Made by a program: the position numbers and the translations under genes. 34,166 nt of DNA. Origin: Gemmatimonadota bacterium. Lineage in GTDB: Bacteria > Gemmatimonadota > Gemmatimonadetes > Palauibacterales > Palauibacteraceae. The notes under the pieces were generated by a model. The model did not search any database, was not told where the DNA came from, and saw only the letters and a program-made list of their open reading frames with translations. The stretch is from NCBI GenBank assembly GCA_039588275.1, contig JBDHAC010000035.1, positions 1 to 34,166 on the forward strand, written 5' to 3'. Below, in pieces: positions 246 through 5,870 of this stretch (the stretch's first letter is position 1; the number at the start of each line of letters is the position of its first letter).

Positions 246-833
246 CTAGGGCGCGCTCCAGCGCATGATCGGTCTGGTTTCACTCCGCCGGGCCACTTCG
301 GAAAACCCGGCGGCCAGGTACGCTGACGCGATCCCCGTCCAGGCGAACGCGTCCGGCATCCGGTCTTTGCGCGGCTCCGTCGGATAGCCCTCCACGATCC
401 GGCCGCCGCTCGCGACCGCGAACTCCGCCGCACCTCTAAGCAGCGCCACCGAGACGCCGCGCCACCTCCAGGCGCGAGTGACGAACAGACACACGATCGA
501 CCACACCGGCCGCTCATCCACCGGCTTCAGGATCCGCGAGCGGTTCAGACGCGAGAAATCCGGGCGTGGCCCGACAGAGCACCATCCGACCGGCTCGTCG
601 CCGGCGTACGCGATCACGCCGGGTGGGGGACCGCCCTCCACGATCGCCTTGAAGGAGGCCCGGTTCCCTTCCCCCTTGTGTTCCTCGAACTCGCGCTGCG
701 TCTGACGCCAGTACATGCACCAGCATCCGGCGCACGCGCCGCGCGGTCCGAACAGGATCTCGAGATCGTCCCAGCGATCGGGGGTGGCTGGGACGATGGC
801 GAGCGTTGGGAGCTCGCCACCTTTGGAGGGCAA
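246..833 (-). CDS. GNAT-family N-acetyltransferase
   Basis: Has WDDLExLFG...CWCMYWR, the acetyl-CoA motif RWRGVSVALL and VEGYP. The likely TTG start at 833 is just after the upstream stop; the longer 1085 start overlaps ogt in another frame. Confidence 0.85.
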   Translation of the reverse strand: MPSKGGELPTLAIVPATPDRWDDLEILFGPRGACAGCWCMYWRQTQREFEEHKGEGNRASFKAIVEGGPPPGVIAYAGDEPVGWCSVGPRPDFSRLNRSRILKPVDERPVWSIVCLFVTRAWRWRGVSVALLRGAAEFAVASGGRIVEGYPTEPRKDRMPDAFAWTGIASAYLAAGFSEVARRSETRPIMRWSAP

Positions 834-843
834 CGCGGGCGCC

Positions 844-1542
844 TCAGCTCGCGCGCAGGAGATCTTCGCGCCCCTCGATCGTGAGGAGCGCCTCCTTGTA
901 CTCGACCCCGCCCCCGTAGCCGCCCAGGCCGCCGTCACGGCGCACGACCCGGTGACAGGGAACGACGATCGCCACGGGGTTGTGGCCGAGCGCGTTCCCG
1001 ACCGCGCGCGCGGCCTTCGGACGTCCGATCCGGCGGGCCAGCTCCGAGTACGGCACCACCGTCCCGAACGGGAGCCGGCTGGCACCTTCCAGCACGCTGC
1101 GCTCGAACTTCGACAGCGCGCTCAAATCCACGGGGAGGTCGAACGCGGAGCGCTCGCCGCCGAAGTACTCGCCCAACTGGTGCTCCGCTTCGGCCAGCGC
1201 CTCGGGATCGTACACCACCGGGTGCCCCGGGAAGCGCGTCTCCTGTTCGCCGACGAAGGCATCGTCGTCCGGCTGTTGCCACGAGACGCGCACAAGCCCT
1301 GCGTCGCTCGCCGCAACATACGTCCGACCGAACGGCGTCTCGAAGCCGTGCCAGCGAATCGTCTCCTTCTTGCAGCAAGTCGGTAGAACCTGTTCCAGCT
1401 GCCGGAACTCCACCGCCTGATCGCAACACGCTTCGCATTCGCCCAGGTGCTCCGCCATTGCCGCTTCGGCCTCCGGCTCCATCTCGCGGGCGACGTACGC
1501 CAGCACCTCGTCTTCGGTATACGTGCAGACGTCCGTGCTCAT
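844..1542 (-). CDS. ogt: Methylated-DNA-[protein]-cysteine S-methyltransferase with an N-terminal zf-HC2 (zinc anti-sigma) domain
   Basis: C-terminal RAVGNAL..NPVAIVVPCHRVV..G..GGY (intact PCHR active site). N-terminal LAYV..E...AEHLGECEAC is an HxxxCxxC ZAS motif. The ATG at 1542 overlaps the sigma-factor stop (ATGA). Confidence 0.9.
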   Translation of the reverse strand: MSTDVCTYTEDEVLAYVAREMEPEAEAAMAEHLGECEACCDQAVEFRQLEQVLPTCCKKETIRWHGFETPFGRTYVAASDAGLVRVSWQQPDDDAFVGEQETRFPGHPVVYDPEALAEAEHQLGEYFGGERSAFDLPVDLSALSKFERSVLEGASRLPFGTVVPYSELARRIGRPKAARAVGNALGHNPVAIVVPCHRVVRRDGGLGGYGGGVEYKEALLTIEGREDLLRAS

Positions 1543-2114
1543 ATCGAAATCTCCTCGCACCAGATCTCGCACAGCTCCCTCCGAAGCCGCTTGAGACCCT
1601 GGTAGACGTTGGCGCGGGCCGTCCCGGGCGATCCGCCGAGCCGGGCCGCGATCGTGTCGTAGTCGCACCCTTCCAGCCACCGGAGCCACACTGCCTCGCG
1701 CTGGCGCCGCGGGAGCTGGGCCACCGACGCGCGTACCCGAACGCGAGTCTCTTCGGTAAGCCGCCCCACCCACGCGTCGGGTGAGGCCTCGGGCTCGGGA
1801 GCCACGCGCCCCGACCGCTCCGTGAGGAGCTCGCGGTGGCGCCGGTGGCAGGCCAGCACGTCGAGGGCCCGCCGCGTCGCCACGCGGTACAGCCAGGCTC
1901 GTGGGTTGGAGTCGGGTCCGTCGTCGGGGGGCGATCGGAGGGCCGTGACCCACACCTCCTGGAGGATGTCGCGTGCGTCTTCGGCGCGGAGCGACATCCC
2001 GAGGAGGTGCCGCTCGAGTTCCTCTCCGTGCGCTTCTACCCAGCCCGCGAGCCGAGCGTCTCTCGCGATCTTCGCCTCCCGTTCAGGCGGTTCATGGTCA
2101 CGGCCGGGTCGCAT
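1539..2114 (-). CDS. ECF (sigma-70 group 4) RNA polymerase sigma factor
   Basis: Region 2 DARDILQEVW...AWLYRVA; region 4 LPRRQREAVWLR...YDTIAARLG.SPGTARANVYQGLKRLR. The start is uncertain (2114 chosen, 2204 possible). Confidence 0.9.
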   Translation of the reverse strand: MRPGRDHEPPEREAKIARDARLAGWVEAHGEELERHLLGMSLRAEDARDILQEVWVTALRSPPDDGPDSNPRAWLYRVATRRALDVLACHRRHRELLTERSGRVAPEPEASPDAWVGRLTEETRVRVRASVAQLPRRQREAVWLRWLEGCDYDTIAARLGGSPGTARANVYQGLKRLRRELCEIWCEEISI

Positions 2115-2136
2115 CGTTGCCGGTCGTGATCCGATG

Positions 2137-2163
2137 CCACGCTGAACCGCGGCGCCCGTTCCC
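2137..2163 (-). promoter_or_regulatory. Candidate ECF-type (autoregulatory) promoter
   Basis: Minus strand reads GGGAAC-N16-CGTGG about 25 nt upstream of the sigma ATG, matching the generic ECF -35 AAC / -10 CGT pattern. Confidence 0.4.
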
Positions 2164-2737: not shown

Positions 2738-3262
2738 ATGAGACCCGTGTTAGTCCCCCGACTTATCCCAGTCTTGCTCTGCAGCGTGGCTCTAGTGGGC
2801 TGCGAAGGAACTTCGGATCCTGAACTCAACGTTCCTGATCCCGCGGTGGACGATCTCCAGGCGACGACCAACCCTAAGCACGAAAACCCGTTCCTCGGCG
2901 CTTGGAAGCTCACGAGCGCCGTGGTGGGTGACGACGAGCTCCACCCCGGACGACACTTTTCGTTTATCATGACCCTCTGGAGCGACGGAACGCACTCGGT
3001 GTCCGTTTCCGGTGACGCTGACAACCTGGTTTGCCAGGCGGACACCAGTTGCGGCTGGAGCGGCACGTACACCTACACGGGCACTACCATCACCACTGAT
3101 GAGCCGGAGCACCCCGATCCCGGGGAACGAGGCGAGGATACGAGTTTGTACGCTTTCTGCGCCAACAAGCTGATCTTCATGGATGAGGCCGACGATGATG
3201 CTGGTTTCAGGTTGACCTTCGAGAGGACTCGCCGGAACTGCTACGTGAGAGACTGCACCTGA
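2738..3262 (+). CDS. Lipoprotein, possibly lipocalin-like beta-barrel
   Basis: Signal peptide with lipobox LVGC; LGAWKLTS and GTYTYTG motifs typical of lipocalin-like lipoproteins; RBS GGAGG. Confidence 0.7.
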   Translation: MRPVLVPRLIPVLLCSVALVGCEGTSDPELNVPDPAVDDLQATTNPKHENPFLGAWKLTSAVVGDDELHPGRHFSFIMTLWSDGTHSVSVSGDADNLVCQADTSCGWSGTYTYTGTTITTDEPEHPDPGERGEDTSLYAFCANKLIFMDEADDDAGFRLTFERTRRNCYVRDCT

Positions 3263-3268
3263 ACGCCT

Positions 3269-3295
3269 GAGGGCGGCTCCACCGGGGCCGCCCTC
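3269..3295 (+). terminator. GC-rich hairpin after the lipoprotein gene
   Basis: GAGGGCGGCTCC-ACC-GGGGCCGCCCTC, 6 nt after the stop codon; no U-tract. Confidence 0.5.
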
Positions 3296-3517
3296 CTCAC
3301 CGCCCGTCCTCCTTCGTAAGCTCCGTCGAACGGTGTCCGCGTTCCACGTGCGGGGTTGATCCTCCTGACCGGCGGCTGAAAACTGGCCCCGGAGCCCGCG
3401 CCGCCGTACCGTTCGCATCGTGCCGCGAGAGCCATTCGAGCGGCCTCGGACCTGTCGGACATCTGGGGTCATTCCTCCCCGTCAACCATTGAAATCAACT
3501 CGAGAGAGAAGGTCAAC

Positions 3518-4651
3518 GTGACTTCGCGAACGATAGCGTTCAGCACCTGCCTGCTGGCCCTTGACGTCACGGCCTTCGGCTGCGCGCCGGCCGATGAGAC
3601 CGCCGACACCGAGCCACAGGCGGAGGCGACGGCCGAGGCTCAGGAGCCCGGACCGGCCGAAGCGTACGAGCCCGAGCCCGGTGAGACCCGAATCCAGAAC
3701 CTGCGCATGCTCACCTTCGCCGGGGAGAACGCGGAGGCGTACTTCTCGTCCGATGGGCAACAGCTCATCTTCCAGCGGCACGGCGCCGGCGAGTACGACT
3801 GCGATCAGATCTTCACGATGACGGCGAGCGGCGGGGAGAAGCAGCTCGTCTCGACGGGGACGGGGCGCACGACGTGCGCGTACTTCTTCCCCTCCGGCGA
3901 TCGCATCGTCTACAGCTCGACGCACGAGGTCGGAGCGGAGTGCCCGGCGCCCCCGGACTACAGCCGCGGATACGTGTGGGCACTGTACGATTACGACATC
4001 TACGTGGCGAACCCCGACGGCTCGACCCCCGAGGTCCTGTTCAGTTCGCCGGGCTACGATGCGGAAGCGACGATCTCCCAGGACGGCTCCAAGATCGTGT
4101 TCACGTCGGTGGCGAACGGCGATCTGGACATCTACACGATGAACGCTGACGGGACAGACATCCGTCAGCTGACGGACGAGCCTGGGTACGACGGCGGGCC
4201 GTTCTTCTCGGCGGATGGGACAAAGATCGTGTACCGCGCTCACCACCCCACCGACCCCGGGGAGTTGGCGGATTACCAGGCGTTGCTCGCCGACGGCCTC
4301 GTGCGACCGGGGGTGCTGGAGATCTGGGTGATGGACGCCGACGGCTCGAACAAGCGCCAGCTCACGGACCACGGGGCCGCCAGCTTCGCGCCGTTCTTCC
4401 ACCCGAGCGGCGAGCAGATCATCTTCGCGTCCAATTTGCACGAGCCGACGGGACGCAACTTCGACCTGTATCTCATCAACATCGATGGGACGGGGCTCGA
4501 GCGCGTGACCACATTCGACGACTTCGACAGCTTCCCCATGTTCTCGCCGGACGGCTCGAAGCTCGTGTTCGGGTCGAACCGCCACCAGCGTGAGGCCGGG
4601 AGCACGAACGTGTTCATCGCCGATTGGGTGGATGAACCGCAGACCCCGTAA
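3518..4651 (+). CDS. TolB-like PD40 beta-propeller lipoprotein
   Basis: Lipobox AFGC, an acidic linker, and six FSxDG-type repeats (YFSSDG, FFPSG, ISQDG, FSADG, FHPSG, FSPDG). Confidence 0.85.
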   Translation: MTSRTIAFSTCLLALDVTAFGCAPADETADTEPQAEATAEAQEPGPAEAYEPEPGETRIQNLRMLTFAGENAEAYFSSDGQQLIFQRHGAGEYDCDQIFTMTASGGEKQLVSTGTGRTTCAYFFPSGDRIVYSSTHEVGAECPAPPDYSRGYVWALYDYDIYVANPDGSTPEVLFSSPGYDAEATISQDGSKIVFTSVANGDLDIYTMNADGTDIRQLTDEPGYDGGPFFSADGTKIVYRAHHPTDPGELADYQALLADGLVRPGVLEIWVMDADGSNKRQLTDHGAASFAPFFHPSGEQIIFASNLHEPTGRNFDLYLINIDGTGLERVTTFDDFDSFPMFSPDGSKLVFGSNRHQREAGSTNVFIADWVDEPQTP

Positions 4652-4718
4652 ACGATTGACCCGCATTCGAAACGGTCGACGGGCGTCGAGCGCCGACGTG
4701 TTCGGTTCCGGGGCGACC

Positions 4719-5870
4719 GTGCGCCTCACACGCCCCGTGCCCGCGCCGACCTGCGCACTCCTCGGCCTCGCCGCGATCGCGGCAGTCGTAGCCCCCAGCT
4801 CCGCCGGGGCACAGACACCGGACGGACTGGTCACCGATGTGGATGCGCACGTTCGCGCTGTCATGGAATCCGCCTCCTTGCCGGGTGTCGCGGTGGCGAT
4901 CGTGTACGGAGACAGCGTCCTGCACCTGGCCGGATACGGCGTGGCTGACCGCGACACCGGCCGTCCGGTCGAGCCGGGCACGCTCTTTCAGATCGGCTCG
5001 AGCAGCAAGACGTTCACGACCGTCCTGCTCGGGATGCTGGTGGAGCGCGGGCAGATCGCGTTCGACGACCCGGTGCAGCAGCACCTACCGCCCGACGTCA
5101 CGTTCCCCGAATCCGAGGGGGCGCCCGTCACGATTCGCCGACTTGCCCTACACATGGCAGGACTGCCGCGCGACCCGCCGACGCTTCGGCGCGCGCACGG
5201 CGACGCACCCGTGCTCGCGTTCACGCACTTCGAACTCTATCAGAGCATCGAGCGCTCAGATCTCGAGTTCGAGCCGGGCGAGGGGTGGCAGTACTCGAAT
5301 TTCGGCTTCGCGGTGCTGGGGCACGCGCTCGAGCGCGCGTCCGGGATGCCGTACGAGACGCTCCTCTGGCGAGAGCTGTTGTGGCCGCTGGGGATGGAGA
5401 ACAGCACGATCACCCTGTGGCCCCGCCACTTGCCCCGTCTGGCGCTCCCGTACTACCCCAACACCCGTACCGGCGAGCTCGAGGACTACACGCCGTGGGA
5501 TCCGGAAGCGATGTCGCCGGCGGGTGGCATCGCGTCGACCGCCGAGGATCTGGCCAAGTATCTCACGCTTCACATAGTGCTGGATATGAACGATGGCAAG
5601 CTGATTTCCAGTAATATGTTAGAAGAGCTGCACGAGCCACAGGCCACGCTCAATGATGAGCTGTCGTATGCGTACGGGTGGTTCGTGCGGGAGCTGCAGG
5701 GCGTAGGCCGGATCGTCGAGCACGGCGGAGAGGTGGACGGCTACACCTCGTTCCTCGGGTTCGCTCCCGACGCTCGCGTGGGCGTCGCAGTCCTGACCAA
5801 CACGGGCGACGCGCCGACGAACGACCTGGGCGAGTGGATCCTCCGCCGCGCCGTCGCGTCGCTCCGCTGA
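4719..5870 (+). CDS. Serine hydrolase, beta-lactamase class C/AmpC-like family, secreted
   Basis: FQIGSSSK (SxxK), YSN and HGG motifs; signal peptide ending AGA|Q. The start is uncertain (GTG 4698 or 4719). Confidence 0.85.
   Translation: MRLTRPVPAPTCALLGLAAIAAVVAPSSAGAQTPDGLVTDVDAHVRAVMESASLPGVAVAIVYGDSVLHLAGYGVADRDTGRPVEPGTLFQIGSSSKTFTTVLLGMLVERGQIAFDDPVQQHLPPDVTFPESEGAPVTIRRLALHMAGLPRDPPTLRRAHGDAPVLAFTHFELYQSIERSDLEFEPGEGWQYSNFGFAVLGHALERASGMPYETLLWRELLWPLGMENSTITLWPRHLPRLALPYYPNTRTGELEDYTPWDPEAMSPAGGIASTAEDLAKYLTLHIVLDMNDGKLISSNMLEELHEPQATLNDELSYAYGWFVRELQGVGRIVEHGGEVDGYTSFLGFAPDARVGVAVLTNTGDAPTNDLGEWILRRAVASLR

Follow-up and report, generated by a model that had tools for sequence, protein, structure and literature searches.

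In the window analysed here, the 34,166-nt stretch of contig JBDHAC010000035.1 (assembly GCA_039588275.1) from a member of the Gemmatimonadota, a gene for an extracytoplasmic function (ECF) sigma factor is directly followed by a gene whose predicted product joins a zinc-binding anti-sigma (ZAS) type domain to a complete O6-alkylguanine-DNA alkyltransferase (Ogt). All genes of this finding are located on the minus strand. Judged by its sequence and gene order, the conserved module is a real variant of the ECF/ZAS anti-sigma systems. We propose that the fusion protein sequesters the sigma factor via its ZAS domain and that alkylation of the acceptor cysteine Cys196 frees the sigma factor, which would in turn re-induce the operon; to this mechanism we give slightly less than an even chance. 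Accounts of inducible alkylation defence in bacteria draw, to our knowledge, almost solely on the Ada paradigm, and Ada is absent from many phyla. The starting point was a reading of the DNA letters of the window (referred to below as the original prediction), which had suggested an adaptive response of this kind and had named two potential triggers, the repair cysteine of the Ogt and the zinc-thiolates of the ZAS domain.

Results

Architecture of the sigma factor and fusion genes

The sigma factor open reading frame (ORF; positions 1539-2204) matches the Pfam profiles Sigma70_r2 (E 8.6e-12) and Sigma70_r4_2 (E 9.3e-13) as well as TIGR02937 (62.0 bits, cut-off 42.9), and the presence of regions 2 and 4 only identifies its product as an ECF sigma factor. 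The start of this ORF is uncertain, with translation beginning at an ATG at 2204 or 2195, or at 2114 in a shorter form. The TGA stop codon (1541-1539) overlaps the ATG of the fusion gene (1542-1540) in the tetranucleotide ATGA (1539-1542), an arrangement that suggests translational coupling, and the coordinates of the two ORFs (1539-2204 and 844-1542) bear out the overlap that the original prediction had described. The fusion gene, which ends with the stop codon at 844-846, encodes 232 residues. Hereby, residues 1-57 (1372-1542) correspond to the ZAS-type domain and the segment from 844 to 1359 encodes the Ogt part.

Within the Ogt part, Methyltransf_1N (PF02870) matches the N-domain at residues 62-140 (E 1.5e-10; 41.9 bits, cut-off 21) and DNA_binding_1 (PF01035) the C-domain at residues 146-224 (E 1.5e-30; 105.3 bits, cut-off 27), and TIGR00589 scores 103.7 bits at a cut-off of 46.4. 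The Ada model NF011964 also matches residues 59-225 (E 2.4e-27), far below the cut-off of that model. In a structural comparison with Foldseek, the Ogt fold matches that of the M. tuberculosis OGT (PDB ID: 4wxc) with an E-value of 1.8e-13. The acceptor motif P195-C196-H197-R198 does not vary among the 31 aligned fusions, nor do Y165, R179, N188 and E223, which we take to be catalytic residues by analogy to the human enzyme (AGT). The Ogt part is, according to these matches, a complete and predicted catalytically competent alkyltransferase. A complete Ogt with intact PCHR and without a transmembrane segment had been claimed from the letters alone, and this description holds: C196-H197-R198 is present, and the chain leaves no room for a transmembrane segment.

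The genome to which the window belongs (4.1 Mb, 85.8% complete) contains one further PF01035 match, an alkyltransferase-like gene (G000:C1:109661-109903; L002:1435-1830, minus strand) in which PWHRV replaces PCHRV. Since this second protein is devoid of the acceptor cysteine, no catalytic Ogt besides the fusion was found in the genome.

Conservation of the sigma factor-fusion pair

A scan of species-representative genomes yielded 37 loci, and eight further genomes, fetched independently, served as hold-out set. Eighteen loci of the Gemmatimonadota and nine of the Chloroflexia contain the fusion at full length, and one further locus of the Chloroflexia, L028, appears to be truncated. In 17 of the 18 Gemmatimonadota loci, all ten Chloroflexia loci and all eight hold-out loci, the fusion is immediately preceded by the gene for a sigma factor orthologue. 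At the remaining Gemmatimonadota locus, L019, the place upstream of the fusion is taken by an aldo/keto reductase gene, and no sigma factor gene is adjacent. The 4-bp ATGA overlap occurs in every locus in which both genes are intact (26/26), with a GGAG about 9 nt upstream, and likewise in 8/8 hold-out genomes. Altogether, 34 of the 35 intact loci of the Gemmatimonadota and Chloroflexia have the sigma factor gene directly upstream and overlapping by 4 bp, so that the ECF linkage on which the original prediction was built is conserved, with L019 as the one fusion not linked to an ECF gene. By gene order and predicted translational coupling, the fusion gene occupies the canonical position of a cognate anti-sigma factor gene.

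At locus L028 (L028:3026-4327, a Chloroflexia metagenome-assembled genome), the sigma factor gene is intact, but the open frame of the fusion is limited to its C-terminal 122 residues; the fusion gene is either broken or wrongly assembled. In six closely related Chloroflexia loci (L020:4885-6966 and five more), a 693-residue protein with Helicase_C_3 and weak Tfb2-like matches is encoded directly downstream of the fusion.

The N-terminal domain of the fusion

ZAS domains are marked by the ligand motif H-x3-C-x2-C together with a fourth ligand, Cys or His, about 23-26 residues upstream. The approximately 60 residues that precede the Ogt part of the window protein carry C6-x25-H32-x3-C36-x2-C39, i.e. 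the full ligand motif with the expected spacing. When a 62-position profile of 21 such N-termini was compared with the PDB, the top matches were DdvA (8rlz, 1e-6), full-length DdvA (8rot, 2.8e-5), RslA (3hug_B, 5.2e-5), ChrR (2q1z, 3.6e-4; 2q1z/2z2s at approximately 4e-4) and RsiW (5wuq, 7.5e-4). The Pfam family zf-HC2 (PF13490) matches 21 of the 21 aligned family N-termini, with a best E-value of 4e-7, and a precomputed PF13490 assignment is attached to only 23 of the 120 matches listed. For the window protein itself, zf-HC2 reaches 18.1 bits on the whole chain, under the cut-off of 22.2, and 22.2 bits on the isolated 62-residue domain, equal to the cut-off. This sub-threshold score is probably the reason why sources name the family plain 'methylated-DNA--[protein]-cysteine S-methyltransferase'. 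Of the two domains which a Pfam scan had been expected to place on one chain, DNA_binding_1 was thus recovered and zf-HC2 reached its cut-off on the isolated domain but not on the whole protein (18.1 versus 22.2 bits).

AlphaFold2 models were obtained for the isolated domain (pLDDT, the predicted local distance difference test, 80.6) and for the whole fusion (pLDDT 90.8). The modelled domain comprises three helices (residues 10-17, 23-35 and 37-57), and the 10-residue block 51-60 that forms the linker to the Ogt has a mean pLDDT of 69. Searched with Foldseek, the isolated domain returns sigma-bound anti-sigma chains (ChrR, RskA, RsiW, RslA) in all of the top ten rows; the best match is sigma-bound ChrR, with a TMq of 0.70 and a root mean square deviation of 0.9 Å over 46 columns, and MucA follows at rank 18, beneath three unrelated rows. 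The E-values of these matches are weak (0.5 at best), and none reaches ≤0.001 because the domain is small. On the profile and model comparisons, we accept the N-terminus as a probable class-I anti-sigma domain of the ZAS type, albeit one in which three helices are seen instead of four. The ZAS/zf-HC2 assignment made in the original prediction is in this respect substantiated by the PDB profile matches, the fold matches and the zf-HC2 matches in 21/21 relatives.

One could also imagine that the N-terminal domain is merely a structural zinc module of the Ogt which does not bind the sigma factor, the latter being a dedicated factor of the ogt operon that is controlled elsewhere. Human AGT, which has a zinc site in its N-domain, offers a parallel, and the full-length fusion does fall under the zf-HC2 threshold and shows three helices only. 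Moreover, two published sigma factor groups with a neighbouring alkyltransferase gene, ECF122 and ECF203 (see below), are described without an anti-sigma factor. Against this stand the profile and fold matches, which point specifically to anti-sigma domains in their sigma-bound form, the low-confidence linker that separates the domain from the Ogt, and the fact that in all 34 loci with both genes the fusion gene is found where an anti-sigma factor gene is expected and is translationally coupled. We consider a purely structural role quite improbable.

Zinc ligands and the proposed site of sensing

H32, C36 and C39 do not vary among the 31 aligned fusions, C6 is conserved to at least 90%, and many of these sequences have extra cysteines at positions 40, 57 and 58. 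Such a pattern could mean that the sensor resides in the zinc-thiolates of the ZAS domain, which would respond to electrophiles, methylating agents or oxidants in the manner of RsrA or of Cys38 of Ada, with the Ogt as a co-expressed output or DNA tether. The zinc-thiolates of RsrA and Ada are reactive, the RsrA model TIGR03988 does match the fusion weakly (E 7.6e-5), and sigma-linked Ogts of the Eremiobacterota possess a weak Ada_Zn_binding-like tail (E 3.6e-4 to 1.7e-3). Many ZAS domains, however, use zinc structurally only, and the Ogt that partners an actinobacterial sigma factor has an N-terminal extension without any Cys or His.

In the hold-out set, H-x3-C-x2-C is complete in four of the eight genomes, H32 is replaced by Arg in three (G058, G196 and G166), and in G082 all of H32, C36 and C39 are replaced; in each of these cases the sigma factor gene, the ATGA overlap and the Ogt are kept. 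Since ligands are lost while the pairing persists, a zinc-thiolate mechanism cannot be general in the fusion family, and we regard it as an unlikely, if still noteworthy, explanation of the system. The loss of ligands in the genus concerned (g2) favours the Ogt active site over the zinc-thiolates as sensor. Of the two triggers named in the original prediction, the thiolate part is weakened accordingly, and alkylation of the repair cysteine is the one retained in the proposed mechanism.

Genus g2, which covers loci L043-L046, L049 and L050 (genomes G058, G082, G196, G100, G152 and G166), shows an eroding ZAS motif. Several of its genomes have a new N-terminal C-x2-C-H; the sigma pairing is kept, and a small peptide gene described below is absent.

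Distribution of Ada

To place the module among known alkylation responses, the Ada_Zn_binding domain (PF02805) was searched. The window's own genome (85.8% complete) yielded no match to this domain, and the fusion protein shows no Pfam match to Ada_Zn_binding or to an AraC-type helix-turn-helix (HTH), i.e. it is not an Ada protein. Among 201 Gemmatimonadota genomes, which include the unpublished genome G157 (counted only among the 190 without fusion), the full-length fusion is present in eleven, namely in 10 of 12 genomes of family f1, to which the window belongs, and in one of two of family f9. None of these eleven fusion-bearing genomes carries Ada_Zn_binding, compared to 121 of the 190 others, and the domain is present in each of the three genomes of f1 and f9 (G075, G135 and G187) that do not have the fusion. 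The mutual exclusion of fusion and Ada fits an adaptive response without Ada, and the proposal of such a response in the original prediction is consistent with the 0/11 versus 121/190 split. The fusion-bearing genomes are related, eight of them belonging to one genus, so that few independent events underlie this comparison.

Predicted promoter, small membrane peptide and search for a regulon

The operon is headed by a small ORF (2248-2385) that encodes 45 residues (beginning MLTRFW) with one hydrophobic helix. It was recovered by script in 15 of the 18 Gemmatimonadota loci and by eye also in L015, whereas it is absent from L011, L013, genus g2 and the Chloroflexia; two of the eight hold-out genomes have it. 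The alignment contains an invariant Pro, no Pfam family matches, and in eight loci the stop codon overlaps a candidate start of the sigma factor gene by 4 nt, which points to frequent translational coupling. From its conservation, we consider this ORF to be a conserved small membrane peptide gene and the predicted first gene of the operon.

Approximately 64 nt upstream of the ATG of the small ORF lies a promoter-like motif, TTCAC-N17-CGTTATA (2449-2476 on the minus strand, with TTCAC at 2476-2472 and CGTTATA at 2455-2449), the full form of which reads TTTCAC(G)-N16/17-CCGTTAYA-GGG across the loci. Each of the 17 Gemmatimonadota loci with sufficient upstream DNA is matched exactly once by a loose regular expression (L009, where the contig end cuts the upstream region, was left out), at a background of 0.011-0.019 per 540 nt, the expression having been derived from the same loci in which it was counted. 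A variant, TTCAC-N17-GTCATA, directly precedes the sigma factor gene in eight of ten Chloroflexia loci. The simpler pattern TTTCAC-N15-18-CGTT occurs in seven of the eight hold-out genomes (background 0.00095 per 600 nt). In this set, G105 has kept CGTTATA and differs in the -35 element. With a weight matrix, the operon site scores 33.2 bits in its own genome, and the next best sites reach 21.3 and 20.0 bits, which makes the site practically unique in this genome. The conservation of the motif marks 2449-2476 as a predicted autoregulated ECF promoter.

A different promoter, GGAAC-N16-CGT, had been proposed in the original prediction. The motif as such is present (2139-2162, minus strand) but cannot be upheld as promoter: the window contains eight occurrences versus 6.7 expected, 37 of 100 shuffled sequences reach eight, and the motif is missing at the equivalent place even in relatives with a sigma factor that is 84-88% identical. 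Moreover, with a translation start at 2204 or 2195 the motif would probably fall within the sigma factor ORF, and no two-block motif rises above shuffled sequences in the 260 nt that directly precede the sigma factor core. We therefore rejected this candidate as a chance match without conservation.

To search for further targets of the predicted promoter, the own genome and a complete relative genome were examined with the motif. In the own genome (4.1 Mb) the strict motif occurs once, compared to 0-3 times in shuffled sequences, and the contexts of the next weight-matrix matches (21.3 and 20.0 bits) are unconvincing. Of twelve other TTTCAC-N15-18-CGTT sites, the four with a candidate downstream ORF precede no member of a repair family. 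As there are no other convincing motif sites, the predicted output is the operon itself. The absence of a wider regulon from these motif searches could fit a minimal circuit or could mean that the motif model is incomplete. In the complete relative genome that stands behind L015, the only second copy of the strict motif (L040:1501-1528; G201:C1:790700-790727) falls at the end of a weak HhH-GPD-like ORF and is followed, at a distance of 54 nt, by a gene for an EamA transporter. One such copy does not exceed the chance level, but the site could be a regulon member.

The peptide gene, which heads the operon in most Gemmatimonadota loci, together with the finding that no further repair genes carry the motif, raises the question of whether damage is sensed at all. 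The sigma factor and the fusion might instead answer some other cue, e.g. via the membrane peptide, or no cue, with simple negative feedback setting the level of Ogt. However, the sigma factor-fusion pair persists where the peptide is missing, as in L011, L013, genus g2 and the Chloroflexia. Two phyla share the union of a suicide enzyme with an anti-sigma domain, four show the coupling of sigma factor and Ogt, and the module is complementary with Ada. A circuit without damage sensing is for these reasons, in our judgement, rather improbable.

Neighbouring genes

Downstream of the fusion, a GNAT acetyltransferase gene is located at approximately 246-833 (Acetyltransf_1, E 1.7e-6; probable TTG start at 833), as the original prediction had noted. 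Of 28 loci compared, the window and its two closest relatives, L003 and L004, are the only ones with this gene, and we regard it as a lineage-specific addition outside the conserved module. The flanking genes, for a PD40 (TolB-like beta-propeller) repeat protein (3518-4651) and a beta-lactamase-family PF00144 protein (4590-5870), both on the plus strand, look ordinary. When neighbouring genes of the loci were clustered, only the PD40-repeat gene (nine loci) and shadow ORFs recurred besides the sigma factor and fusion genes.

Discussion

Proposed mechanism

In the mechanism we favour, the ZAS domain of the fusion would bind the adjacent sigma factor, as suggested by homology and gene position, and the sigma factor would read the conserved TTTCAC-N17-CGTTATA motif and in this way control its own operon. 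Once Cys196 has accepted an alkyl group, the fusion would lose stability, and the sigma factor would be freed directly or after proteolysis. Such a step would be in line with a review according to which alkylation destabilises AGTs and disrupts the contacts of their N- and C-domains (PMC10779285); the word 'sigma' does not occur in that review. The main output would be the resynthesis of the consumed Ogt, a minimal adaptive response that would stand in for Ada. In favour of this mechanism, the Ogt is also what the various pairs have in common, as sigma-Ogt pairs with overlapping genes recur with an N-terminal extension free of Cys and His in an actinobacterium and with another accessory domain in the Eremiobacterota.

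Several observations weigh against this mechanism. Concerning the first step, binding of the sigma factor by the fusion is deduced from homology and gene position; zf-HC2 stays under its cut-off on the whole protein, the Foldseek E-values of the domain are weak, it has three helices where classical class-I anti-sigma domains have four, and the zinc ligands are not universally retained in the family. One of the 18 Gemmatimonadota fusions, that of L019, stands without an adjacent sigma factor gene. Concerning the output, induction of the operon by alkylation is a prediction, autoregulation is read from the conservation of the motif, and the motif searches in the own and the relative genome returned no DNA-repair regulon beyond the operon. 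Finally, the exclusion of Ada was observed in related genomes.

A broader interpretation, which we hold somewhat more tentatively than the mechanism itself, is that the fusion serves as a consumable anti-sigma factor and thereby as a stoichiometric damage counter: each Ogt that repairs a lesion and is inactivated would free one sigma factor, so that transcription would track the number of lesions. The module would replace Ada where Ada is lacking, and the Ogt would be the missing anti-sigma factor of ECF122, ECF203 and the sigma-Ogt pairs in at least four phyla. If true, this would constitute a second, mechanistically different adaptive response, in which suicide chemistry is read out via the release of a sigma factor, and it would supply the missing regulator for ECF122 and ECF203, two groups whose mechanism is listed as unknown. 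It would also provide a compact and probably orthogonal three-part switch, consisting of promoter, sigma factor and consumable anti-sigma factor, with a defined DNA lesion as input. With a defined predicted promoter and parts of small size and good solubility, the module would lend itself to direct testing in a heterologous host.

Comparison with known systems

A published precedent is the adjacency of ECF and Ogt genes in Actinobacteria. In the ECF classification of Casas-Pastor et al. (2021), ECF122 and ECF203 are 100% actinobacterial groups in which position +1 is occupied by a gene for an O6-methylguanine methyltransferase and which have 'no putative AS factors', and the promoter predicted for ECF122 consists of CTCAC at -35 and CGTCTAC at -10 (PMC7826278). 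ECF122 is listed under 'unknown mechanism' in a review (PMC8999054). The window resembles ECF122 in that an Ogt gene is located at +1 of the sigma factor gene; TTCAC/CGTTATA is similar, though not identical, to CTCAC/CGTCTAC. It differs in that the closest relatives of the window genes are found in metagenome-assembled genomes of the Gemmatimonadota, while ECF122 is wholly actinobacterial, and in that the Ogt carries a ZAS domain. In the literature searched, which covered papers outside subscription-only access, we found no description of a ZAS-Ogt fusion as anti-sigma factor. The statement of the original prediction that no characterised example was known is thus upheld for the fusion and has to be qualified for the bare ECF-Ogt adjacency, which is catalogued as ECF122 and ECF203.

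Among our own loci, the actinobacterial arrangement is represented by L037 of Frigoribacterium (L037:2516-4495), whose sigma factor is 33% identical to that of the window. Here, the gene order is Ogt, ECF sigma factor (3228-3824), Ogt, and the published ECF122 motif, in the form CCTCAC-N17-CGTCTAC, lies intact at 2719 ahead of the first Ogt gene. The second Ogt gene shares an ATGA overlap with the sigma factor gene, and its product has a shorter N-terminal extension without Cys or His and with a conserved LxRLHARL helix. We considered this extension as a further ZAS domain and rejected it, as an LxRLHARL-type helix without Cys or His does not qualify as such.

A third sigma-Ogt architecture is found in the Eremiobacterota (L034:3286-4672, L035:3184-4657 and L038:2944-4468), where an ECF sigma factor gene is followed by an Ogt gene with a short N-terminal extension; the sigma factor and Ogt ORFs of L034 overlap by 8 bp. 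The C-termini of these Ogts contain the weak Ada_Zn_binding-like stretch mentioned above. In total, the ZAS-Ogt fusion is found in two phyla and sigma-Ogt coupling in four. In a tree of Ogt domains, built from 26 rows hand-picked from the loci and proteins in hand, the deep nodes are weak (75/79), and a common origin across the four phyla is not resolved.

With the ZAS class-I anti-sigma factors of the pairs ChrR-SigE of R. sphaeroides, RslA-SigL, RsiW-SigW, RsrA-SigR and DdvA-DdvS, the fusion shares an N-terminal helical domain with H-x3-C-x2-C and an upstream Cys, and its gene is likewise located directly downstream of, and coupled to, the gene of an ECF sigma factor. Unlike in these proteins, the fused part is a suicide DNA repair enzyme, whereas ChrR carries a cupin, RslA and RsiW a membrane or extracytoplasmic part, DdvA a CHAT protease and RsrA no fused part. 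The fusion further differs from this set in being soluble, in its three instead of four helices and in the lack of zinc ligands in some members.

Compared to E. coli Ada, the fusion has neither Ada_Zn_binding nor an AraC-type HTH, and it would release a sigma factor rather than become an activator. The predicted trigger would be the acceptor Cys for O6-alkylguanine, unlike in Ada, where it is the acceptor Cys for methylphosphotriesters, and motif searches detected no regulon of the alkA/alkB type. What the fusion would have in common with E. coli Ada and with AdaA/AdaB of B. subtilis, to which its Ogt domain is homologous, is the underlying principle, namely that a suicide alkyl acceptor would double as the transcriptional switch that induces its own synthesis.

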